A stretch of 64,000 nt of DNA, taken from Octopus vulgaris (lineage: Eukaryota). Both the position numbers and the translations under genes were made by a program. How positions within the stretch are numbered: the stretch's first letter is position 1; every line of letters begins with the position of its first letter. The stretch lies in the NCBI GenBank assembly GCA_951406725.2, contig OX597820.1:72230001-72294000 (forward strand). Direction: 5' to 3'. Shown here piece after piece: positions 19,799-63,960 of the stretch. The notes beneath the pieces were generated by a model that saw only the letters and a list, made by a program, of their open reading frames with translations, was not told the DNA's origin and did no database searches.

Positions 19799-20867
19799 CC
19801 CTTTCGTTACTATATTTCTGACCAAAATACACCCCTTATGTGCTTCAATTAATTTCTAACATAATCATAAATTTAGTCTGGTTTCATTAAACAACTATAA
19901 CTTTTTTATTTATCAATATATTAACGTGAATTTTGGAAGATAATTTAATGAAATGTTCTCAACCAATTCTATACTATAATTTTTGTCACAAAGTGACTCT
20001 AATTGCAGGTAGATACAGGTAAATTCAACAAAATATAAAATTATTAAAATTTTGTTCAAACATCGCTATAGAAAATGGGTTATTAGCTAATATTCAATTG
20101 GGTATACAACAAAATTTTACGATAGAATTTGTTATTCTGGGTAACTTTCTGATACCCATAATAATATTTATGGCAAAATAGTCTTAATTTCATTTAAGGT
20201 TGTGGGAAACCACTAACTATCCTTTCTTTCGCTTTGTTTACATTTAGCGTAATGGTTCGTTTCCGCCGTAATGATTTCAAATAGGCTCATTCGAAAAAGT
20301 AAAAAGAAATAGTCTAAGGCTTTACTCTCCTGGGAAAGTCTGTGGCTTGGTCCAGTTTCTTCAGAAAAATCACCGAAAGAAACAGTTTTTAAATTTTCAC
20401 TCCATTCAGGTGCCAATTCATTTTCTTTATCGCTGTCGGAGCTCTCGGATTCACTGTTTTCACTTTCGGAAAATGAAACATCAGATTCATTATCAAATAC
20501 CACGCGCTTTTTTTTTTTCAGTCATAGAGTTAGATTTATCAAGGTCTTTTCAGTAGAAAATCCTTTGAATTCCGACTCGCTGCTTGATATAATGAAATTC
20601 GTATCCATTTTTTGTCAGAATTACAAATTTTGAAAACACAATAGGAACAAATTTTGGAAAAAAATCTCCCAAAATTCACGGAATTAAAATTACACTTCAA
20701 TTGTTGTACAAAACTGTAGATGAACTGTTTACGAAGTATAATCACGTGTTTTCACAAATGTACTAAAGAGATTTGCTGATATTCTCATTTAAATATGAAT
20801 AGGTAAATACGGGCGGGTTTGGTCACATTAACCAAAATTTTTTTCAGGCGGTTTGGTAACGAAAGGG
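19799..20867 (-). mobile_element. Internally deleted piggyBac-family transposon
   Basis: TTAA duplications (19795-98, 20868-71), TIR CCCTTTCGTTAC; ORF 20213-20503 has an acidic N-terminus followed by LDYFFLLF...EII.AETNHYA, a PGBD transposase N-terminal motif. Confidence 0.92.
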
Positions 20868-21147
20868 TTAAGAGTTCCTCATAGCGTGAGGCATTTATGT
20901 ATAGTAATGCCTTTAATATATATATATATTTAAAGGGAATAATTATGAATTTTTCCCTTATGAGGTTTTTCACGCTAACTACTTGATAAATTCTTATAAA
21001 GATTTTATCCTATTTTAAAATTTTATATATATATATATATATAGTTTTTAGGTTTGAGTAACTTTTAGATATGCCTGGGAAACTACCTCAGCTAGTCTAA
21101 GTCAAATAAAACTAGAGAAATGTAAGATGTGTGTCTGTGTGGTAAGA

Positions 21148-34569: not shown

Positions 34570-37500
34570 ATAGATCATTTCATTCACTCATGTTACACAA
34601 CTAAAAGCAATTTACATGCAGAAAACAAAGTAAATATTTAATATAAATAAATTTCAGGACATTTTACTATACCTGCAATTTGAAGAATATTGGTAGTACC
34701 ATCAACTGTATCCCAGAGTCTTCTGATTATGATATCCTAACAAGATTTGATTGAATTGGTAGACCAACAAAAATAGTCTTTGATTTCATTAGCATTTGTT
34801 CGTTAACTTTTTTTTTTTTCCACTGATCCTCAGGACATTTAAATTCTGAATTTTGTTATAAATGCAATCCACATACAGATAAAAAAACCACACCATAAAC
34901 CCAAAAAGATAAATGTGCTGTTTGTTTTGAAGTGAAGAAAGTCCATATTAAACACACGTAAAAATGTAATTTGTACAACTAATAACTGTGACGAATTTCA
35001 CATTTTGAAATTTTCAGTGAGAAAAAAATTCCATCATATGCGAACCATTAAGCAAATATGACAGTAAAAAAAGACACCTGTTATTAAAAGGATGCAAAGT
35101 CTGATAATTTTTCAAAATAAAATACGCAACTATATGAATTTTTTATAGAAAAATAATTTTTATTTTTTTAAAAATACTTTTAAAAATACAGTAAAAATAC
35201 AAAAAATCACAGGTTTCCCATCTTGGACGTTTTAAGATCAGGTCTCAAGTGATATCTGGAGAAAGAAAAGGGGGAGAAAAATACATTAGTTATGGAAGAA
35301 TAGAAATTTAAATTAATGATGTGGGGGGAAAAAAAGACCAGACCTGTCCATTCTGTGTATGTTACATAAAAAAAAGGAAAGGAAAATAAAAGAACTTGAC
35401 CAAGTGATAGAAACCGGAGAAAGGTGAACGAAAATTTTCAGTTGTGAAAAGAGAAAAACAGGTCAAAGAAATAGAAAGAGTGAGATTCAATAGAGAGAGA
35501 GAGAGAAACAGACAGAAAGAGAAAAAGGAAGAGAGTGAAATGCAGACATGAAAGAATTTGGTAGAAAAGTCAGTTTACAAATACAGAAATACAACAATTT
35601 ATTTTTTAAAAAAAATATATATATATATATATACATAGGAAAATCTATAAAGAGACAAAATGAAAAAAAATAGACAAACATGACAGCTGCAAGATATCCA
35701 TAGACAAGAGCTAAGGACTGAGCAGCAGATTTGGAGGATGTGTAAGAAAACAAGAACAAAAAAAAAAAATAATAAAAACATAGAAGTGAAAGTTCCAAGT
35801 GGGAATCAAGGAAAAGGGTGGGTGGGCAGCTAATATCCAAACTACCGAGTCACAAGCAGTAAACCACGATAGCTGTTGGTAGTTCTTACCAACACAATGG
35901 AAAATTCTAAATTAAAAATGTCAACTTGAAAGGATTTTTCAAAAGTCAGTCAGTATCCGGTAGCACCTATTTTTTTTTTTAAGTTTTTAAGTGTTTTTTT
36001 TTCATTTAAAGAAATTTTAAAATTATTTAGCTTTTTAAAATTTTTTAAACATTTTAAAAACATTTTTTTTTAAAAAAAGTATTTTCTTTTAAATTACAAT
36101 ACAAGGTAAAAATCAGAAGACCCATTCGATATGGGTCAATGAGCTAATTATATTTTATTAGGGGCAGTTGATTTTCGTTCACCTTTCTAAAACTTGAAAA
36201 AGTTTAAAATTACAAGAAAAAGAAATTAGGAGATAATGTTTCCTAACAGAGGAGACATTATATATATATATATATATATATGCATGAGTGTGTATATATA
36301 TATATGTATGTATATATATACATATAAACATATGTATATATAAATATATATACGCACACACACATATATGTAAGTTTTAAGTTTAAGATCTTTAAAAGCT
36401 ATGAAAAGCTAAGATGAATCTCGTGTTCACTGTTAAGAGCAAATTAAAGGGACTGCAACTATTGATAATATATCAACAGTTTGCATTTTAATGTTTAATT
36501 TTTTTTTCTTTTTCCTAGTCTAAAAACTGAAAGCATCTTGGAAAACATTGAAAGCAAAAAAAAAAAAAGGAAAGGAAAAAAGGAAAAATTTAAAAAATGG
36601 AACAGTAAAAAAAGCAATTTATAATTGAAAACATCAACTGATGCCCTGATTTAGTTTAGATAATTTATCAATTTATATATATTGAACAGTTATCAATTAG
36701 GAGGGCAGATCATTTTTTTTTTAAGCCACAAATTTCTAAAGTTTATGGTTTTTAAACGGCAGTTATATAGACAATGACATGCTGTTTATTTGTGTTAACA
36801 TTCACACTGAAAAGACTACCACTTGGAATGGGAAGAAAAGATCACCACGTTACCTGGCATTACTATGGATTGGGATTCCTCGATCAAGCAGTAAAGATAC
36901 CTTAAGTGCTGATATCACATTTCCTGTGTCTTTGTTTTCCCTGGAGTCTCAGTAGCCGTCCAAATTGTAGTAGTAGTAGTAGAATTTTACTGGCAATAAA
37001 TGCCAGAAACTTGAGTACTTGTACAAAAACTTATACAATCCCTGCTGATGTACTACAAGTGTCAGAACATTAACATTTGTACATTTTTTCACTGAATTTC
37101 AATATAAACCAGGATAAGTGCTAATATCGACATATTAGCAGCTAGCCTCTATCTTTTTAGTGAGCACATACAAGCCTTAAGGATAGAAGCCTGTTACGTT
37201 TAAGACTTTTTTCTTTGTTTTGTATTGTTTTGTTTGGTTAGTTTATGTGCCTGGATTAATTAATTTATTTAGGGTTGTACAATAATATCAAAATTTGCTG
37301 CATCTTTAAAAAATTGCCTAAAGATTATTATTATTATTGTTGTTATTATTATTATATATATACATATATATTTTTTTCCTCAACCTGATAATTTGTTTAG
37401 CAGCATTTGAAATTGATTTACAACAGTTTGGATATCTAGTGGCTCTATCCTTAAGCTATTTAGAACTAGTTTGGTAGTTTTACTAAGTTTTAAAATGCAT

Positions 37501-38356: not shown

Positions 38357-38469
38357 TTAGTAACCTCCGCCTCTACCTCCATATGGATGACTTCTGTATT
38401 GTCCCTTTGCACCTCTAGTGGGTGGTGGGGCCTTCATCTGTCCAACATTTGAGCCCCAGCCACCATCAC
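38357..38469 (-). CDS. KHDRBS: KHDRBS exon 9 coding part ([37 protein letters not shown]), PY-NLS
   Basis: TTTTCAG acceptor; R-x-HPY NLS; TAA at 38359-38357. Confidence 0.95.
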
Positions 38470-41400
38470 CTGAAAATGAAAATAACTTGGCTAAAGACAT
38501 CACATCAAAGTAAATTAATAAAAATACACACAGGTTTTAATTAACTTAGAGAACATTATACAAACTATTTTTTATCTTCATTAGGTGGGTCAAAGACTCT
38601 AAAAACATGAAAGCTTAGCCATAGATTCCACATCTTGGTGTGCTCTACTTTTACTTTACATAGGCCTCTGATGTACTTCTAGGCATCTTATATCCATTTT
38701 GTGGTAATGCTGAGGCATCACCTTGAAGGGTTTTAGCCAAGCAAATTGCTCCCAGTACTATTTTTTTTTAAAGTTTGGTGCTTTTACCATCAATTCCTTT
38801 TGCCAAACTTAAGTTTAGGAAATGTAAACAAACTGCAGTTGCTAAGTAGTGTAGAGATCAAACACACACACATCTATAAATAGCAGGAGTCCAACATTGA
38901 TCAAAGGCATTTGCCCATGGTGCTGCACAGTGGGACTGAACCTGAAACCACGTGGCTGCAAAAGTGAGCTCCTTAACCACACAACCATGCCCGTACCTAC
39001 ACCACATATTTTGAAACCAAATCACCCATTGAGTTAAACGCGGGAGCGAATAAAAACTAATTCATTTTCAGAAAATGAGTCACTGAACATGTGGGTAACA
39101 GTTGTTACACCCAACCTGTTACATAATAACCATCAACAAATATTCAGCCTTTATATTAAATGTTAGAATCAAAACAATAAAGGGAAAATAATCTCTTTTT
39201 TAATACATATTGACAGTATATTTTACACATTGAAGACCAAAAACTAATTTTGTTTTTGTAGCTGCATATGTCTCTTTAGAATTGATTTAATTATTCAGAT
39301 ATTCAAGTTCATTCACCATAATGCAATGAACAGAGTCGGTGGGGGGAGATAGATGTTAAAAACCCAAATAATTCAGTCATTGTAAAGAAAAAATTTACAA
39401 AATTACTTGAACACTCACTCTAACAAAAGCACTTTTTTGTGCTCATTATTAAAGGAACAAAACAACTCACCGTATCCCTCATCATACTGTCCCCCAGCGC
39501 CGTAATCATAATATTGTGAGTCCCTACGAAGGAAAACAAACAATATTTTTATGCTTTTTTTTTTGTATTTCATTTTTACAATTATATATTTCATAAAAAA
39601 GCGTTTCAAACATTAACCTTTTAGCATTATTCATGTTAGTCACTTAAATGTAATGCTTATTTATTCAGATTGTTTTGAATTAATCATGCGTTATCTCATT
39701 AACTACTTCAATGATGTAATTGTTCAGTTTTAGGATGATATTGCAAGAGAGTTGTGAGGGTCAAATCTGGCCAGGCTGAACATAATACAAGTAAAACATT
39801 TTGGCTGGACATGGAAGGTTTAAATGCTAAAGTATCAAAGTGACATTTGCAGATTTCATACATTTTTTATAAATGTGTAAGCCAGTTGCAAGACCAGAAT
39901 TACTAAGACTTCCAGCAAAGGTTTTTTTTTTTAAATATCAGAAGGGGCTTGAAATGTGAGCAGCCTTGTGATTTAAGGCAAAGAAATCTATTCAAATTTT
40001 GACTCCACAGAGTGACCCCAGCTGATCCAGACCTGTAGATATATTCATATAAACATGTGCACGTATATGTAAACACAAACACAAGTATATGTTTATATAG
40101 TTATATATGTTTATATATATATATATGATACACTTACACACACATATATACTTTTTAAAAAAAAACTTATACCAGGCTCTGGAGACACAGATACATAAAT
40201 TCACCTGAGCACTATGTACCTGGAGAACTTTACTGTCCGGTCAAATATAGAAATACAACACTATCTGCCAGAAAATACTTCTGGCTTCCAGTATATTTCA
40301 GACAATAACGTCTGAGTACTTTACATACTGACCATAGAGAGAAAAAAGAAAAAGTTTATTAAGACTGGATAATGAACAAATACTGTACTGTTTTATCTAA
40401 AGACAGCTGTTTTAAAACCAAAATGTTAACTAAAATTCAAAAGGAGAAATAATTCTAGATACGAGGAACAAGAGACAACTTTAGTTGTTAACCATACCAT
40501 ATGGAATGGTATAGAATTATTACAATGGTTTTATTATGTAAACAATAAACATGACTAAGATAGTGAACACAGTAAATATTATGTGCTAACAATTACTAAA
40601 TTAGCCAACAATTGCCAAATTGAAAAACTGACACAAGAAAACTTACAAAATATTAGGATGATTATCAGATTGAAATTAATGTTCTCTTTGTTTTAATTCC
40701 ATTCGCATCTAGTACACTTTATAAGAATATAAATTAACTCCCAGCAATTAACTGAACCGAGCAGGCTTTGAACTCAGAACAGAGCCATAACTACCATGCA
40801 TTTTATCAGATGCCTTAACACTTTTGCTAATCACTACCAATTAAATGTATTTGCACAGAAAAGAAAAAATTAAAATGCTGTGGCAAATTGTACCTAAGCT
40901 AATAGCAATACACATTATGTGATGAAAGACTACAAAAGATGTGTAAAAATTAAAAAATTGACAATATACTTACACTTGGCCATATGACTGATCACCATAA
41001 CCACCTTCATAACCACTTTGATCTCCATAACCTTCATTATAACTTTGATCATATCCCTGTGGAAATTGAATAATGCTAGTTGTAGACACACATTTACATA
41101 GCTTCAGAGAGTCAATTAAAAAAAAAGCAACAATTAATTATATGGTCACAAAGAGACAGCTTATGAGGACAAAAATGAACATTAATTGGTTTTTTATAGG
41201 CCAATAATTTGTTTAATTGTACTTACTTTTGCTTCATTAAATTCAAAATTGTTTATTATCAGACCAGCAACAAACTTTTGCTGGTATCAACACTTTATAA
41301 TTAATCAGATTTACTACAAAAAGCCTGGATAATCTAATTCAGTGGAAACACAAAGCAAAAGTAAACAGTCAGTTTGAAAGGAAATCAATTGACCAGAGAT

Positions 41401-44400
41401 TATAAACTAGATCTAATCTGAAAATTATTTGGCACTGTGTAGAAAATAAACAGCAAAAAGGAAAAGTATTATAATGACATGTAACACTAACTTGAATTAG
41501 TTGCATAAGGTAATTCTAGTATCTAATCTAGTGATTTAGTGTTTAAAAATATATACTAACATAGTCATCATAGCTTTGTTCCATGGGTGGTGGCACTTGT
41601 GGAGCAGGTGCTGCCCGACCTCTGCCAGCCGCCATACCCCCTCTTGGTGGACCACCTCTTGATGGGGGTGTACCACGTCCTGCAGGAGCACCCCTCGTAG
41701 GAGGTGGAATAGCACCACCCCTGATAAAACAGAAAAAAAAAGATAAATCAGAGAATGTCTTAAGTACATAATATGTTAAAAAAATTGAAACATGTCCGAA
41801 TAAAAACTGTTTTAGTTTATAAAAGACAAATGAAAACTAAAGGGCAGAGGAGAGAAGAACCAAGAAAAACTTCATTTTACCTGCCAGCGGGACCACCTCT
41901 TCCAGCAGGAGACGTTAGAAGACCACCCCGTGGTGCCCCTCGGGGCGTCTGTCCGGGAGCACCTCTGCCACGACCTCGACCACGACCACCATCACCACCA
42001 TTTAAATACATCAATTCTTGAAGTTGCTGTTGACGGATTTCATCATTGTAATCATTCTGCAACAGCAAAAATGTAGAATATACATAAAAAATAAAACAGC
42101 ATGTGAATAACCAATAAGACAGAAATAAGTTTACAATCAATTAATAAAAAAAAAAGGGGGAGGCGGAAGCTCCACAAAAAAAAGAAAACACTCAACTCAC
42201 CGGAATTAAATACTTCTGTAATTCAGTGAAAGCATGTGCCATTCTTTGATATGCATCTGATGCTTCTGCATAAACTTCTACAAGAACATGAAGATCTTCA
42301 TTTAAGTGGGTATATTTTCCACCTTTCTTTCTTAACTCATCTTCCTATGATTAAGAGAAACAAGTAATATTAAAATATCCGTCAATAGACCATACATACA
42401 TGAGAAAGAAAAAACAAACAAAACAAAAAAACTAGCTATTACTTGAATGGCTAAATGGTAATATTGGGAGGTGGCAAATAAATTCTTTCAATTTTATTTT
42501 TATTTTTTTCTACTGGGCACCCTATCATCGTGTCTGTAAAGGGGTAAACAACATTCGTCCAAATTTTAAAAATATACAGAAGTTGTAGAGGAATAAGAGT
42601 TAAAAAGAAAAAAAAAAAACTTTAAAAGCACTATGATAAAAATATTCTTTGTATTAATTCAATTAACACTAAAAAGGGTCTAAATAGAATGAAGAAAAAA
42701 AACAAAAAACGAAGGAATTTATCTGACAACTTAATTTTGAAAACAATGAGACACTACAAATTGACAATGAAAATTCAATAATTACTAAGTATTTTTTTAA
42801 AACACACAACATATAAATCACAATAATTCCAGTTAAAAGTAATAAGGATAATTTAACCAATCTACCTACCTTATCTTTGTCTCTCATTGAACCTTTACCA
42901 AGTATAGACATTTTTGTCATTGTTTCTTCCTGTAGTCTTTTTAACGAATTACCTTTTGGTCCTAATAACTTTCCCACAAAATTGAACTGAAGAGTATATA
43001 AAATCAGAATATATTACATTGGGTTCAATTTTATATCGATGAATATCAGTTATAGATATTGTCCAGTCAAACAGAAACTGATAGGTCTAAGTACAAAGAA
43101 TTTATTAACTTCGTACACTGCCAAGAAACATGCAGTCAAAAGTTACAGAAACCGCCGTGACATCTCTCCAAACCATTGGAATTCCTAACCGAAATATTGC
43201 CAAAATTACTGACTAAACTAGTCCTAGTTTAAATGAAATGGTCATAAAAATTATGTAAGAAAAGAATTTATAATACTATTTAACAAACCAAATAAACATT
43301 CTTAACTAAAATATTTAAATTCTGTTCCAAACGATAATATTAAGTGTTGCTAACATTTATAGTTTATCTACAATGTTTTGGACAAGATCTAAGTACTTTC
43401 TACACTTGAGAGAAATTTAAGATTTCTTTTTTAATATATTGTGAAATAATCCTCTTTCTGTATAAATTTATCCAAGTATAAGAGTTTAAAATTATTTTAA
43501 AACACGATCCTTAATTCAGATATTCAATTATTTGATTATTGCTGAACAGTGGCGAGAAAACGAAAACCGATACAGAATTAAAGACGGACACACACACACA
43601 CAGATAGTAATAACAATAATAAAATGAAAGTAACAACTAAAATACCTTGGGAAATTCTTTAACAGGAATCTTGATTTTACACGAGTGTTTGTATGGTTTT
43701 CCAGTGTGTATTTCAAAACATGGTATATTTTTTTCATCTTTTTGTGAACCAGCTGGTGCATTCCCTGATTGAACTCTTTCTATTTCTAAAGAACAGATTT
43801 CTAATAATCAGGTTACAAGTGGTTATCAGAAAATTAAAGAAGAGTATGTGTTTGTGGGTTTTTTCATTTAAAAAAAAAAAAAAAAGAAAAAAAGTCAACA
43901 ATTTAAACACTAAAATCAAACATTTAAAGTTCGAAGAAATATTCATTGAAGCAAACAAAAAGTTTTCTCTATCCTGCAGGAAATACGCTAACAAAATACG
44001 AGAAAGTATTTGCAAAAGACACAAAAAAAGTGTAAAACATCATCGAAGATTTATATAAAGTTTGCAATAAAATAGCCAGTGCTTACCTGAAATGAGCAAC
44101 ATAGATTAGCTATAAGTTAAAGAGTATCCGATCAAAACACACAGCTTGCTTCAACAGACACGGAAATAGTGACTGCTTATTTATCAAGCTTCGTTTGAGA
44201 GGATGTTGATGTGTAAGTTGGCAGACAATCAATGAAGGTGTGTAAAAGTTTACGTGAGCGGTGATAGCCTTGTGTCAGCATCAAATCTTGAAAGGCAGGC
44301 GTGCGTGATAAGGAAGCTAGTCTATTAAGAGACGAGTAGTGCTTTTCCTCAAGGGTTACACACTTGCAGCCAGCAGCACTGCAAGATTACCTCTCTCCGC

Positions 44401-47400
44401 TGTAAAATACTGCAGTCGCACGCAAGCGGGCATCTACAACACACACTGGCTAACTAAAGCTTAAAAAAAAAAAATACTATATACATATGTGTATATATAT
44501 ATGTATATTTATATACGTATGTATATCACTGTTCGAGTGTATTAAAAGGCTGAAGTGTCACATACGGCAAGCTGGTTGAGATTTATACAAAAATTATAAC
44601 GGAAGCAGATTAACCTCTTTTATTTTATTAATATATAGATATACGAGTATGTGGGTGTGTGTGTGTAAGCGAGTGCGCGTGTGAGTATGCGTGTTAGCTA
44701 TGGTTGTTTATATAGCAGTGTACCTGCGGAAGAGCAGATAGTTGGTTGGAAATAAATAAAAACACTCAAAAGAAAATGAGTGAATGAATGAGTAAAAAAA
44801 AAGTGAACATTCGCAGTTAACCAGAGCTTTATATATAGATGTGTATGCATGTACGTACACACACACATATATACACGCATAACAGTGGAAGAAGAGACAG
44901 AGCGAGCGAGTGATGGAGAGAGAGAGAGAACGTTGATGCGCTGCATTAACGGCTGATGATGATCGGTGAATGTACTACGTACGGAAGGGCTACAACAATA
45001 ATAACAGCATCATCTCTTCCTCCTCCTCCTCCTTCTGCTCTTCACCGCCACCGCCGCCACCACCACCACCACCGTCGTCGTCAGGAGTGCAACGGCGACC
45101 ACCGTGCTGCACACACAGCCAGGAAATAGTAGGATTACTATTAACCATAACGGAACGGTGCCGTCAAAAATGACGGATGATAATAAGAAGAATTCTTAAT
45201 CACACACATTCTTTTAAAGATTTCGGCTTTTTCTTGTATTTTCTTTACGGGGGAAGGTGAGGGGGGGAAGTGTTTCACCGTTCGATCTCTGTTCTTTTTC
45301 TTTCTTTCTCTCCACTGATGTGGGAGGAAGTAAAATGAATTAAATTACATAGGGAAATAACGATAGGGGACAAATTTCGCTGGGATTCTTCCTACTACAT
45401 TAAACAACACATATTTATAGTCAAGGGAAGAAGGATAAACCGTGTTAGAGGACCAAAATTTTTTGCATTTTATTCCTTTTTTTTTTTTTCTTTTCAAATC
45501 TAAATTATTCTCAGAATGAAATGGAAGGCAATTATTAAATTTTAAATTACACTTTCGCCTTTCTTCTTTTGAAGAATGATTTTCTTAGGAAAAAATTGAA
45601 GATATTTAAATATTTGTTTTGATTAAAAATAGATTATCAGACTACCAACATACATATATATACAGATAGATAGCAAGATAGAGATATGTGGCATAACTAC
45701 ACAAGTGTGCCCCTGTTCACACACGTTTATACATATACATTTATGACATGACTATACAAGTGTGCCTTCATCTGTGCGTGTATATATGGGTGAATGTATG
45801 TATAAATACACATATCTAAATTACATACACACACACACATAAATACAAATACATACATACATACACATATATATATACATACACATATATATATACATAC
45901 ACATATATATATACATACACATATATATATACATACACATATATATATATACATACACATATATATATATATATATGTATAAAAAAAATATAATATATAC
46001 ACATATATATATATATATATACATACAAAAAATATATATATAAAAAAAATACACACATATATATATATACATACACATATATATATATACATACATATAT
46101 ATATATAATACACATATATATATATATACATACACATATATATATATACATACACACACACACATAAATACAAATACATACATACATACACATATATATA
46201 TATATATACACACATATATATATATACATACACATATATATATACATACACATATATATATACATACACATATATATATATATACATACACATATATATA
46301 TATATACATACACATATATATATACATACACATATATATATACATACATATATATATATACGTACATATACATACACATATATATACATACATACATATA
46401 CATACACATATATATACATACACATACACAAATATACATACATATATATATACAGATATACATACACATATATACATACATATATATATATACACATATA
46501 CACACATACATACATATACACACATACATACACATATACACATATATATATACATATACACATACATATACACATATACATACACATATATACATACACA
46601 TATACATACACATATATACATACACATATACATATACACATATACATACACATTTATATATATATATATATATATACATACACATATATAAATACAATAT
46701 ATAAATACACAGAAGAACAAAGGACACACGTGGCGGCGTTGAAAAAGATTCCAGAAAAAGTATATACACATTTTATTTTATTTATTCATTCCAGAGTGAA
46801 TGTATAATGAAAATGCGTCGATTGCACTTCGAAAAAGTGATCAAACATTTATAAATCTAACGTCAAAAGCCATTATTGCATCGCTCTTGATTTCCAGGTG
46901 TCCATAAAACAAGGTTGAAGAGACAAGAGTGGAAGAGACAAGGCATTTCATAAGAACAAGCAGCTTAGGTGACATTCAATGAACACCATCGACTGTCGGT
47001 CAATGCTTTTGGTTGATTGATAAAATATAGAGGAGCTAAGGCAGCAGAGAAGAGATAAATGTAAGGAAGAAGCACTGGGAGACGACAGACAGTAAACTGC
47101 TATGACAGTTATAGCAGCGGAGAGCCGCCACATCTCTCAAAAACAACATTCTACCAAAATTATTTTACAAAATAAGTCAGCCATTTTAGAAAATTTTCGA
47201 CAGATACTTCGTGATGCTTATCATAGTTTCAATAAATATGAATAATAAACATAAAGCAAGTGGGGATTTGAAAGAAAAAAAAAAAACGGGAAATAGGGAA
47301 GCAGATGAAAAAAAAAAAAATCTAAATGAATAAAACTAGGTTATAGATAGCCATGTGCGAGATAACGAGATCAGTCATGTTTACTGCATGTTCTGGCAGA

Positions 47401-47935
47401 ATTCGTTAGAGAAAAATGTTCAAATTTGTGATTTATTTACTCAATATTGAAGACAACATGTAGGAAGGTGATAACTTAAATATAAGATGGAGACTGGGTC
47501 ACGCCGATCGGAAAAAAAACAGCATGACTGAATACAACGCTGTAGTTGTCGTGTTCTGTGATGAATAAAGTATAATATTTACACCTTAGCTTAACCACCA
47601 AGCCATTTGCTAGCCTTTCGTATTAATATCGGCTATTAGTAGTAAGATAAAGAGTATATAAGCTGCCAGAACAATCTATTTCATCTACTATCAGTTAGAA
47701 CATAAATGAAATGACAAGCAGTATACCGGTAAATATGGCCGACCTCAGTCTCATACAAGCAATATGGACCATTATAACAGCAACTATCACGTAAAAAAAG
47801 ATAATATTATTACATACCTTCAGTTATTAATCGAGCAGCATGAGAAGAGGGAGAAAGTGATGTAACTTCGGCTTGAAGTTCATCAAGATATGTATTGTTT
47901 TGCATCTGTTGTTGAGCGTCTTCTTCAACCATCAT
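38357..47935 (-). CDS. KHDRBS: KHDRBS (Sam68/SLM1/SLM2-like) STAR-family KH RNA-binding protein, 9 coding exons, 367 aa; join complement(47818-47935, 43646-43785, 42870-42986, 42201-42344, 41881-42056, 41561-41720, 40974-41056, 39471-39523, 38357-38469)
   Basis: Manual splicing gives an open 1104-nt frame with GT-AG introns and matching phases. Motifs: [25 protein letters not shown] (QUA1), [30 protein letters not shown] (maxi-KH, GPKG loop), [11 protein letters not shown] (QUA2), RGG/Pro-rich, Tyr-rich, and [15 protein letters not shown] matching the Sam68/SLM C-terminus. Paralog number (1/2/3) is not assignable. Confidence 0.96.
38715..39000 (-). mobile_element. Decayed tRNA-derived SINE in KHDRBS intron 8
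   Basis: gtgggactgaacctgaaaccacgtgg..ttaaccacacaaccatgcc matches the reverse of the SINE head. Confidence 0.75.
39471..39523 (-). CDS. KHDRBS: KHDRBS exon 8 ([17 protein letters not shown])
   Basis: CCTTCGTAG acceptor, G|GTGAGT donor; YYDYG motif of the Sam68/SLM Tyr-rich tail. Confidence 0.93.
40974..41056 (-). CDS. KHDRBS: KHDRBS exon 7 ([27 protein letters not shown]), Tyr-rich
   Basis: TTCCACAG acceptor, GT|GTAAGT donor, phase 2. Confidence 0.92.
41561..41720 (-). CDS. KHDRBS: KHDRBS exon 6 ([10 protein letters not shown]...[11 protein letters not shown])
   Basis: TTATCAG acceptor, TAT|GTTAGT donor; RG/Pro-rich frame continuous with exon 5. Confidence 0.92.
41881..42056 (-). CDS. KHDRBS: KHDRBS exon 5 ([20 protein letters not shown] + RG/P-rich)
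   Basis: QUA2 motif; TTGCAG acceptor, CAG|GTAAAA donor, phase 2. Confidence 0.96.
42201..42344 (-). CDS. KHDRBS: KHDRBS exon 4 ([24 protein letters not shown]...ELQKYLIP)
   Basis: [14 protein letters not shown] motif; CATAG acceptor, CCG|GTGAGT donor. Confidence 0.97.
42870..42986 (-). CDS. KHDRBS: KHDRBS exon 3 ([39 protein letters not shown]), KH core
   Basis: STAR KH signature; TTCAG acceptor, AAG|GTAGGT donor; overlaps ORF 42669..42977. Confidence 0.98.
43646..43785 (-). CDS. KHDRBS: KHDRBS exon 2 (EIERVQSG...[11 protein letters not shown])
   Basis: TTTAG acceptor, AAG|GTATTT donor, 140 nt, phase 1 to 0. Confidence 0.93.
45820..46705. repeat. ~0.9-kb compound (TA)/(CA) microsatellite in KHDRBS intron 1
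   Basis: Directly visible; sub-period CATACACA(TA)n. Confidence 0.95.
47818..47935 (-). CDS. KHDRBS: KHDRBS exon 1 ([39 protein letters not shown]), QUA1
   Basis: ATG at 47935; donor GAAG|GTATGT, phase 1; resembles the Sam68 QUA1 helix pair. Confidence 0.9.
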
Positions 47936-48300
47936 TGCAACGGTACGTAGTAATAAGCCGAAGGAATTAAACACACTACTTGTGCAAAGCTTTGTTGTAG
48001 TAATTTATATATCCGAATTACAACTACAGTAAGCTGTCGCGATTGTATAAAATCCGTTATTATTTAGCACACAACGGAAAGCTGTTGTAAATATACAATT
48101 AGAATTTTGGTATTTATATTAGTGACAATATAGTAATTCTATTACTGCAAAGTATTGTATAAAATTAATTAAAATTAAACGGCGAATGAATACACTGACT
48201 ATTTTCCCGCCATTTCCAGAGCGCGATACTTGCATTACCAAGTGTAAATAGGGGCCCCTTGGTAGGAAAAAGGTTCAAATCAAACCGCCATCTTCTGTGG
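47936..48300 (-). promoter_or_regulatory. 5' UTR / core promoter region of KHDRBS with YY1-like and E2F-like motifs
   Basis: Repeat-free, locally CpG-enriched; CCGCCATCTT at 48285-48294, CCGCCATTT at 48207-48215 overlapping TTTCCCGC at 48203-48210. Confidence 0.55.
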
Positions 48301-62344: not shown

Positions 62345-63250
62345 CTCTATATAAAACTGAGAATGTGTCTGTTTGTCTGTGTGTTTCCCTAAAACTTGAG
62401 AACTACACAACCAATTACATTCAAATTTTACACATGCCTTACTTAGGGTCTGGGGAGTGTTACTGGCAAAAACAATTTTTAACTTTTTGCCTAGGGCGAG
62501 CCCACAGCAATATCATATCTTCTCCACTATGATTCCCTAAAACTTGAGAACTACACAACAAATTTCATTCAAATTTTACACATGCCTTACTTAGGGTCCA
62601 TGTAGTTTCAGGGGCAAAACAAATATTCAACTTCTTGCCGAGGACGAGCCCATAGCAATATCATATCTTCTCCACTATTTCAGTATTACGTGTTAAAAGT
62701 GAAACAAAATATTTCTCTATTTTATGTCAGATACTTTCACTTTAACAATAAAAATTAGAGATAATAATAACAATTGAATTATATGTAGTAAGTAGTAATT
62801 AAAAATCAAACTAAATTAAATCGTAACATAACAATTAAAAGTAAAAATAGCAATTGCTATAAAATTGCATCAATGACTCGAACTTGAATAAGTGGTTTCA
62901 CATGAATGGGAATAAATTAAAAATAATATTAGTGTGCAGAAATGGAATAGTCCAGATGGAGCTGTGCACATACCCTTTACCATGGCGTTTACATTAGATT
63001 ATCTGCTAATTAGCTAGCATTAAGTATCTATATGAAGTTTGGCTGTATGTAATGTCTGTTTTCTCTAACAGCCGCTTCTACTGAGTACTACTGTTGGTTT
63101 ATTTATTATACATAAAGGACTATAGCTTCAACTGCGTACTGCTTTTTGATTCACCGTAAGGTTTGTTGTTATTATTATTACTGTTTAACTATTGTTATCA
63201 CGTTTGTTGCTTCCTCGTAAGGGAAACGTTGTTGTGTTGCATTTGTTAAA
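62345..63250 (+). mobile_element. Helitron-like non-autonomous element with ~148-bp internal tandem duplication (~62385-62532 / 62533-62680)
   Basis: 5' TCTATATAAAA followed by (GTCT/GTGT) tract; duplication directly visible; 3' end not identified. Confidence 0.5.
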
Positions 63251-63378
63251 TAATTGTAAACCGTAACCCTCCCCCTTTGGGAGAAGAAGCTTTGGTTATT
63301 GTTTAAAAATTGAATTGTGTCCCTGTTTGGGGAAATTGACAATATTTTCACCGTTTATACGGAAGCATTTTTATTAAA

Positions 63379-63960
63379 ATGCCTTCGATAGAAGAAAGTC
63401 CAAAAATGAATTTCACTGCAGCCGTCGGCGGACGCGAACTCATTAAAATTAAAATGGAAGAAATACAAACCTATTTCGGATTGATCACCGACAAAGATGG
63501 TGAATCTAGGATAACACCACTAAACGAAATAAAAAATAAAATTAAAGAAAAGACAATTGTCTATAAAGTATACAATGTAGAGAAGAAAAAAGATTTGAAC
63601 ACCTGGAAGAAAGCACCATCGAAAAGTGTCTTGGTACGACTATGAAAGATATGTAACCAGAGGTGGTAAATTCGCCACAATAGAAGCAAGGTTCGAGTCA
63701 ACGGAGCATGCAAGGGAGTACTCGACTCGAACCTTGCAAAGTGGAAATATTTTATTTTTACCTTTATATCTGGGATGTCGGACGTCCAGGATAAAAATTT
63801 AAAATGTCCCCCCAGAAGTAGAGGTAGGCTGGATTGTAGCCACACTTCTATACAAGAGGGAGGACAAGATACAATTGATTGAAATTGCAAGAGACGGGCC
63901 TACAATTCCGTCTCCTGCATTTTCAATATATAACAGACTGTTTTATATTTTGGGTATTGT
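63379..63960 (+). pseudogene. Disrupted ORF, probably LINE ORF1/gag-like
   Basis: 88-aa ORF, then shifted frame ..KFATIEARF..LFLPLYLG.RTSRIKI*NVPPEV..W resembling an ORF1 RRM-like region; family assignment from memory only. Confidence 0.45.

Follow-up and report, generated by a model that had tools for sequence, protein, structure and literature searches.

Sam68-type proteins contain a single KH domain and rely on dimerisation to control splicing. Splicing-factor genes, for example those of the SR proteins, carry conserved poison exons, which are typically conserved as well as or better than the coding exons. In T-STAR, the KH/linker interface is about twice the QUA1 interface, and QUA1 is cited as required for Sam68 dimerisation (PMC4735526). 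Homeostatic feedback by SLM2 and Sam68 works through 3′UTR exons and a donor located within the last coding exon (PMC5199341). Isoforms of 4.1R are reported to be determined by intrasplicing, and 3′ recursive events are reported in introns of 0.5–5 kb (10.1101/159350).

The window analysed here (the whole stretch of 64,000 nucleotides) contains a hidden exon whose host gene, as judged from its predicted protein, is a coleoid cephalopod KHDRBS gene (Sam68/SLM-type STAR). Like KHDRBS1, KHDRBS2 and KHDRBS3 (Sam68, SLM1 and SLM2/T-STAR), it has the QUA1-KH-QUA2 order and the RGG/Pro and Tyr-rich tail, as well as the phase-1 intron in QUA1 helix 2 that is implied by the vertebrate models. Unlike them, it has a second exon-2 acceptor, adding five residues, and the hidden exon. 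The hidden exon resembles poison exons in its very high conservation, its stops in every frame tried and its strong donor, but the upstream junction that defines a poison exon was unseen among the joints listed for it. With the NMD feedback of SLM2/Sam68 (PMC5199341) it shares being a conserved non-coding KHDRBS exon that could lower output; however, it lies in intron 1, and dependence on the gene's own protein is only hypothetical here. Compared with 4.1R (10.1101/159350), it likewise has an intronic donor joined to a downstream exon with alternative acceptors, whereas its conservation covers a whole exon-sized block and a second splicing step is only hypothetical. The human model XP_054215569.1 (KHDRBS3 isoform X6) and similar models carry a short new N-terminus at the same exon-2 boundary and lose QUA1. 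These swapped N-termini are mutually unrelated and some are probably annotation errors, while the cephalopod exon is conserved between species; no published function was found for the swapped-first-exon KHDRBS3 models. The hidden exon is a known kind of event which, for this gene, we did not find in print: a limited literature search, mostly without subscription papers, returned no description of it or of a QUA1-less KHDRBS isoform.

The host gene and its two exon-2 acceptors

The predicted whole protein of 367 aa contains the QUA1-KH-QUA2 STAR domain and has its best matches among KHDRBS proteins, which places it in this subfamily. It is identical to P0004 at 347 of 367 residues and to mammalian KHDRBS3 at 179 of 367. 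The Pfam Qua1 match, on residues 15–49 of the 93%-identical relative P0002, scored 25.2 bits, below the curated cut-off of 29.3. The gene is laid out as follows.

47818..47935, minus strand: coding part of exon 1 (118 nt, phase 1), encoding the first helix of QUA1 and the greater part of the second
43786..43800, minus strand: in-frame 15-nt extension of exon 2, from the second acceptor (AG 43802-01)
43646..43785, minus strand: exon 2, with the QUA1 end, linker and first KH strand
38357..42986, minus strand: exons 3–9, with the remaining KH, QUA2, and the RGG/Pro-rich and Tyr-rich tail

Splicing was examined in four public runs (X1, X4, X11 and X20), in which the evidence consists of contigs, not reads. 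None of the runs is recorded as RNA; their RNA nature was deduced because the contig sets are small and include joints that skip introns. Introns 2–5 were seen as joints in all four runs, and exons 7–9 are known from sequence and homology only. Exon 1 lies outside the stretch onto which the contigs were mapped, and its 3′ end was recognised in loose ends of run contigs that abut each of the two exon-2 acceptors, at 43802 in 4/4 runs and at 43787 in 2/4. By translation, the 15-nt extension inserts five residues into QUA1 helix 2. The preliminary description had missed this 43800 acceptor. A joint between 43602 and 45646 in X1 was discarded as an artefact (GA..AC, with a short repeat-rich side).

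A conserved exon in intron 1 spliced to exon 2

The preliminary description had proposed that a non-repetitive, GC-richer block in intron 1 is either a poison cassette or an alternative first exon lacking QUA1. Its coordinates were all correct (exon 2 start at 43785, the AGs, the donor at 44087/86 and the 367-nt span 44453–44087), and the block is indeed single-copy within the window. Its GC content (0.44) exceeds that of the flanks (0.27–0.33), but 44900–45250 is higher still (0.48).

44087..44460, minus strand: hidden exon, with an exact 3′ boundary; 5′ limit at 44446 in one run and beyond 44462 in three
44081..44089, minus strand: strong donor CAG/GTAAGC, used according to contig joints
44454..44474, minus strand: T12 run (44474-63) and acceptor-like AGs at 44461-60 and 44455-54, candidate acceptors recognised from sequence alone

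The donor at 44087 exceeds chance expectation: intron 1, 4 kb long, has no other GTRAG, and the window has no second minus-strand CAGGTAAG. When the non-repeat part of the intron was shuffled 300 times, CAGGTAAG arose in 1.7% of the shuffles. As expected of a first exon, this 5′ splice site is used to a downstream exon: it was joined to exon 2 in three of the four runs (X4, X11 and X20, from three studies and three organism labels). The junction 44087->43785 that had been proposed as a check was seen in X4, and the joint 44087-43800 in X11 and X20, so that the hidden exon used the 43800 acceptor in 2 of its 3 joints.

The sole relative diverged enough for a conservation test was organism B, with about 5% intronic divergence, where the 376 nt of the block show just 1 substitution and 1 gap. 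This rate (1/375) is far below the 34/~687 differences in intron 2 (Fisher p 6e-6) and the 15/238 further upstream (p 5e-6); the coding exons had 5/440. The block was present at 0.88–1.00 of its words in 20 of the 24 listed runs, from 8 studies and 3 organism labels. Neither an unused donor nor neutral divergence, the two outcomes that had been named as counting against the proposal, was found, the donor being joined to exon 2 and the block strongly conserved. These observations confirm the hidden exon as a real, strongly conserved exon spliced to exon 2.

It could be argued that the RNA is functionless and reflects splicing or promoter noise where a strong cryptic donor happens to adjoin an open 5′ region, the conservation being caused by an enhancer or promoter role of the DNA. 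The form appears minor, the frame of its ATG is at chance level (see below), and X1 has no joint; its block continues unspliced into the intron, which weighs against a first exon. The block RNA is also unstructured: its fold was not unusually stable (z 0.31; about 37 windows of 80 nt gave a best z of −2.2), 0/38 weak Rfam matches overlapped it, and it does not qualify as a structured ncRNA or miRNA hairpin. However, the same donor is active in three organism labels, the block is kept by the 20 runs of 8 studies, and conservation spans the exon and drops in the adjoining intron (10/216), making noise a very improbable explanation.

The upstream end of the hidden exon

In the proposed poison cassette, exon 1 would be joined to 44459 or 44453, giving a premature stop and NMD, possibly under the control of the protein itself. 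Inclusion after exon 1 does give the claimed premature stop (six sense codons, with TAG as codon 7), and in silico a premature stop followed from every AG, including two more at 44451-50 and 44447-46. The T12 run and AG are located where contig depth falls, and 44453 ranks second of 129 intronic AGs, behind the used 43800 acceptor, on a small scoring matrix for which 9 sites, 43800 among them, served as training set. The block is conserved at least as well as the coding exons, which also suits a poison cassette, and NMD targets are rare and contigs lose rare forms. Nevertheless, no exon 1-to-block joint or loose end was among those listed for the contigs of the four runs, from which such rare forms are lost, and the junction 47818->44453, also proposed as a check, was likewise unseen among the joints listed; 29 loose ends and 118 pieces lie beyond these listings. 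Contigs of X1, X11 and X20 cross both AGs and run up to 44462, so 44453 is not their splice path. The unaligned ends of these contigs are 11, 28 and 45 letters, respectively, whereas a join of exon 1 at 44459 should leave 27 under a 30-letter overlap rule that also fits the known joints. The ends in X1 and X20 misfit; that in X11 is within one letter, which speaks for the cassette and against a first exon. In X4, exon 1 goes 113 letters without branching into exon 2, and the spliced block contig simply begins at 44446. Further points against a cassette are that no branch-point-like motif lies within 45 nt above either AG (4/9 used acceptors also have none), that UWAA is not enriched in the block (4 seen, 3.9 expected) and that known KHDRBS feedback acts via 3′UTR exons (PMC5199341). 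With no exon 1-to-block link listed and the contig ends arguing against it, the poison cassette is so far unsupported and we consider it unlikely.

Contigs cannot establish a transcription start, the region from 44463 to about 44524 is apparently repeat-masked, and the stop at 44462 also coincides with 3 letters shared with the end of exon 1. The upstream extension of the contigs without a joint would fit 3′-first recursive splicing (intrasplicing), in which the 44087 donor splices to exon 2 first, on transcripts that start at the normal promoter. The 3′ end of the block would then be a new acceptor to which exon 1 is joined second, or the product would be a dead end; the block would be an intermediate and might influence which of the two exon-2 acceptors is taken. 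Its 3′ end is a CAG in a pyrimidine-rich setting (14/20 pyrimidines), preceded at −23 and −34 by branch-like motifs, but this site ranks only 28th of 129 as an acceptor, and all 376 nt are conserved, beyond the last 40. The block contig was also deeper than upstream contigs in 4/4 runs, contig depth being a crude figure that was not used to rank isoforms. We regard recursive splicing as improbable here.

The region directly upstream of the block is a possible site of transcription initiation.

44463..45250, minus strand: CpG-rich region, candidate internal promoter on the basis of CpG content

This region has 36 CpGs against 30.4 expected, while the gene body has 53 against 141.4 expected, and its CpG content ranks second-highest of 311 windows. 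TTAGTT at 44457-52 also fits the arthropod-type initiator consensus, a weak match (4.8 matches per kb); TATA and initiator matches were rejected as promoter evidence because of their frequency (11.4 and 4.8 per kb). The promoter assignment is weakened by the remainder of intron 1, which is also CpG-rich; the zone is almost continuous with exon 1. In many octopus genes the first third is unmethylated (PMC9476566), which was counted against an internal promoter.

The 44087 joints, the lack of an exon-1 link among those listed, the contig ends, the conservation and the CpG peak directly upstream lead us to favour the block being an alternative first exon of the cephalopod KHDRBS gene, probably transcribed from a second promoter in intron 1. 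The Met-Lys proteins of the squid/cuttlefish type, the vertebrate QUA1 swaps and the P0008 dimer prediction described below point the same way. For the first exon lacking QUA1 that had been proposed, the exon, its donor use and its conservation thus stand, and the reading as a whole is favoured yet unproven. Transcription would begin near 44450–44510 or in the CpG-rich zone above.

Predicted QUA1-less proteins and dimerisation

Three short reading frames of the hidden exon bear on its coding potential.

44356..44433, minus strand: upstream ORF 1, an out-of-frame run of 25 codons whose start context is weak
44177..44281, minus strand: upstream ORF 2, 34 codons, out of frame
44087..44102, minus strand: candidate start ATG and five codons, in frame with exon 2; translation putative

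ATG 44102 is in phase with exon 2, as had been described, but an in-frame ATG is no better than chance: the nearest upstream ATG is open and in phase at 109 of 334 intron-1 GT sites. Its context is weak, with T at −3 and +4, and translation from it, a prediction, is unproven. In organisms B and C, upstream ORF 2 ends differently owing to a gap of 1 nt at 44194. A leader of about 350 nt with two upstream ORFs would damp translation from this weak ATG, and the resulting minor transcript would have as its sole long reading frame one without QUA1. No fetched protein had the predicted N-terminus or the five-residue insert. A search among shorter proteins gave 47 matches, none cephalopod-like; an exon 2 search of representative proteins gave one spurious repeat protein; and a metagenome search with P0008 gave 34 loci, none near-identical and none matching the block (blastn).

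In the squid/cuttlefish-type cluster (10 members, 2 of them unrelated fragments), 2 of the 8 KHDRBS members begin with Met-Lys at the exon-2 boundary. This implies a different upstream exon, since reading through from an unspliced intron, whose last letters are AG, would place Glu there. Intron 1 of the window has no ATGA/GT donor matching the squid-type exon, a possible homologue that ends differently from the hidden exon. About 21 of the 120 homologues listed swap QUA1 at the same intron position, all of them automatic vertebrate models; a human RefSeq XP isoform is among these. Among the 59 members listed of ten mollusc/lophotrochozoan clusters, a single Mytilus model has a swapped N-terminus; it looks like intron read-in and was set aside, leaving the swap without support outside coleoids in these clusters.

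The predicted dimer of the natural QUA1-less protein P0008 (residues 1–155) scored 0.66, compared with 0.01 for the best of 3 controls, with contact agreement of at least 64%, pLDDT of at least 75 and contacts centred on the equivalent of T-STAR Y141. In a eukaryote benchmark, the dimer mark was reached by 17/29 solved pairs (7/16 for animals) and 0/30 single chains; the T-STAR KH dimer is already solved, so the P0008 result may reflect memorisation of that structure by the predictor. At the KH helix-3/linker interface of the window protein, the equivalents of Y141 and M144 are kept, Y45 aligns across a gap, and the interface changes from T-STAR are Q58C, D125E, A138S, G145A and L148F. The term 'dimerisation-deficient', used in the preliminary description, was an overstatement, since the KH/linker interface downstream of QUA1, the larger one in this subfamily, would be retained and P0008 is predicted to dimerise through it.

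The predicted product of the alternative first exon would retain the linker, KH, QUA2 and tails and should still bind (A/U)AA RNA. It would still pair via the KH/linker interface but lose the QUA1 clamp, giving a weaker or differently partnered dimer and not a monomer. Combined with the 15-nt acceptor choice, three QUA1 states would be possible: intact, five residues longer or absent. We tentatively suggest, as a possibility that is itself doubtful, that cephalopods of the octopus type and those of the squid/cuttlefish type have both kept a first exon in intron 1 giving a translated QUA1-less KHDRBS, which with the 15-nt switch tunes the two dimer interfaces separately.

Whichever role applies, the exon is an event of a familiar type, confined to one gene, and not a new kind of system. 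If the exon acts as a poison exon or as a leader damped by its upstream ORFs, it would provide dosage control at the 5′ end, placed differently from the 3′UTR feedback of vertebrates. A conserved QUA1-less isoform with the KH/linker interface would, if true, separate the two dimer surfaces in an animal, and would offer a natural test of QUA1's contribution to the KH dimer, both for bipartite RNA binding and for splice choice.

The hidden exon and its splice signals

The minus-strand gene, modelled from the window sequence, has nine exons and encodes a 367-aa STAR protein. In sequence comparisons this protein shared 347 of 367 residues with P0004, a cephalopod KHDRBS homologue that clusters together with a Sepia protein named KHDRBS3, and 179 of 367 with mammalian KHDRBS3. 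These matches indicate a coleoid cephalopod, probably an octopus. The region upstream of exon 1 at 48195–48300 (minus strand) is likely to be the main promoter; two ATGGCGG motifs that resemble YY1 sites lie there. Intron 1 interrupts QUA1 helix 2, coinciding with the break point of vertebrate models with swapped first exons.

The coordinates of the hidden exon proposed within intron 1 (44087–44460, minus strand) all hold on rechecking the window sequence. Its strong donor at 44087 is the sole GTRAG in this 4 kb intron and was joined to exon 2 in three of the four sequencing runs compared; CAGGTAAG occurs at no other minus-strand site in the window and arose in 1.7% of 300 shuffles of the non-repeat intron. 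The 44453 acceptor ranked second of 129 intronic AGs with a small matrix built on nine sites. The in-frame ATG at 44102 is unsurprising, because the nearest ATG is also open and in phase at 109 of the 334 GT sites of intron 1. No structured RNA was found in the block, and UWAA counts there were at chance level. A further AG/GT junction, the pyrimidine-rich CCGCAG/GTACAC, lies upstream near 44723 (minus strand); no joint near it was among those listed, and contigs of runs X1 and X20 cross the site.

The block differed from organism B, one of the organism labels, by one substitution and one gap in 376 nt. A 717-nt organism B contig, mostly intron 2, had 34 substitutions and 42 gap letters (Fisher p 6e-6 against the block), and substitutions were also more frequent just downstream (10/216, p 3e-4) and upstream (15/238, p 5e-6), while three coding exons were similar to the block (5/440, p 0.23). 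The runs were chosen by presence of the block, a choice that hardly yields near-identity against a 5% background. Organism C is too near the window sequence to inform, so the evidence for conservation comes from a single comparison. The hidden exon is real and conserved to an unusual degree, and noise is a very improbable explanation of it.

Use of the exon and its 5′ end

The block was present at 0.88–1.00 of 33 sampled words in 20 of the 24 listed runs, which span eight studies and three organism labels. Contigs of four of these 20 (X1, X4, X11 and X20) were compared over 41600–45790, with exon 1 and a TA/TG microsatellite of about 900 nt (45810–46711, between exon 1 and the CpG-rich stretch that lies upstream of the hidden exon) lying outside. 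None of the records is labelled RNA; the four runs skip the gene's introns, with introns 2–5 as CT..AC joints in all four, and therefore behave as transcriptomes. The predicted junction 44087 to 43785 was seen in X4, the 44087 donor was joined to 43800 in X11 and X20, and the X1 block contig was unspliced, continuing to 44020. Loose ends carrying the end of exon 1 lay at 43802 in all four runs and at 43787 in two, and thus exon 2 has two acceptors 15 nt apart:

43786–43800, minus strand: second exon-2 acceptor segment, a 15-nt extension used by exon 1 in all four runs

On translation, the upstream acceptor adds five residues inside QUA1 helix 2; this insert was absent from all retrieved proteins, squid/cuttlefish-type ones included.

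The preliminary description offered either a poison cassette or an alternative first exon. No exon 1–block joint or loose end, including the suggested 47818 to 44453 junction, was among those listed for the four runs, a listing that omits 29 loose ends and 118 pieces. The X1, X11 and X20 contigs match uninterrupted across 44453 up to 44462, so that acceptor is not their path. Position 44462 is ambiguous: a T run that appears to be masked has its edge there, and an exon-1 join at 44459 would end at this position too, because the sequences have three letters in common. With a join of this kind 27 letters should stay unmatched, by a rule that fits the 24- and 28-letter ends of known joints. The ends observed in X1, X11 and X20 (11, 28 and 45 letters) fit run-on into genomic repeat; only that of X11 comes within one letter of a cassette's expectation. 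In X4, exon 1 continues unbranched for 113 letters into exon 2, and the spliced block contig has its first letter at 44446, preceded by no foreign sequence. A cassette thus accounts poorly for the four 5′ patterns and is unlikely, while an internal transcription start explains them all because a start makes no branch in the assembly graph. Contigs lose rare forms and cannot reveal a transcription start, and a minor poison form could be missed. The block's 3′ end, an acceptor-like CAG with branch-like motifs, would also suit 3′-first recursive splicing (10.1101/159350, in excerpt), which we consider improbable. The hidden exon is most likely an alternative first exon.

The CpG rate at 44463–45250 is 3.2 times that of the gene body, and this stretch contains the second-highest of 311 windows. 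It points only weakly to an internal promoter, because the remainder of intron 1 is likewise CpG-rich and the first third is unmethylated in 6,545 octopus genes (PMC9476566, in excerpt). Further CpG-rich peaks at 19800–21000 and 62800–63800 are probably 5′ ends of other genes.

Novelty and autoregulation

Among 120 listed homologues, a pattern screen for a swapped first exon flagged 27, and six partial, unrelated or QUA1-retaining models were removed by eye. The remainder, about 21, are all automatic vertebrate models, human XP_054215569.1 among them. Across ten mollusc/lophotrochozoan clusters, one of 59 listed members had a swapped N-terminus, in a doubtful model. The event type is common; for this particular exon, or a QUA1-less KHDRBS isoform, no description was found in the literature listings searched or in passages of PMC3636136.

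In mouse, SLM2 and Sam68 are both self-limiting through NMD that acts via 3′UTR exons (PMC5199341, in excerpt); this analysis found no link between a loop of this kind and the exon in intron 1. The 3′UTR of the octopus gene has a donor-like CCAG/GTAACG at about 36853 (minus strand). A strong acceptor-like site with a long pyrimidine tract and CTCCAG lies 3 kb below the stop codon at about 35256 (minus strand), with AATAAA at 35164. Judged by sequence, the two sites are a possible counterpart of the vertebrate feedback.

The predicted QUA1-less product

In the block leader, ORFs of 25 and 34 codons precede the ATG at 44102, and T stands at −3 of each of these three starts, so protein output from 44102 is probably low. 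Two of the eight KHDRBS members of the squid/cuttlefish-type cluster (P0006 and P0008) begin Met-Lys at the exon-2 boundary, where an unspliced intron would encode Glu, implying another upstream exon. These starts are independent support for a QUA1-less product, with a cassette or an assembly artefact as equally possible origins; compared at the protein level, that exon's 3′ end is unlike the block's.

The product had been called dimerisation-deficient. QUA1 would indeed be lost, but the KH/linker interface would be kept. According to excerpts of PMC4735526, the area of this interface in T-STAR is 1,065 square angstroms on each monomer, close to double that of QUA1, Y141E abolishes splicing activity, and QUA1 is cited as also needed for Sam68 dimerisation. 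Alignment showed Y141 and M144 kept in the window protein and five other interface residues changed. Two copies of P0008 (1–155), naturally without QUA1, were predicted to dimerise (score 0.66; best control 0.01), with contact agreement of at least 64% and pLDDT of at least 75; the predicted contacts involve the linker and helix 3 and centre on the equivalent of Y141. Among eukaryotes, 17 of 29 solved pairs (animals 7/16) and 0 of 30 single chains attained this mark; the P0008 pass may reflect memorisation by the predictor, because a similar dimer is already solved. 'Dimer-weakened' is a safer description of the QUA1-less product than 'dimer-deficient'.
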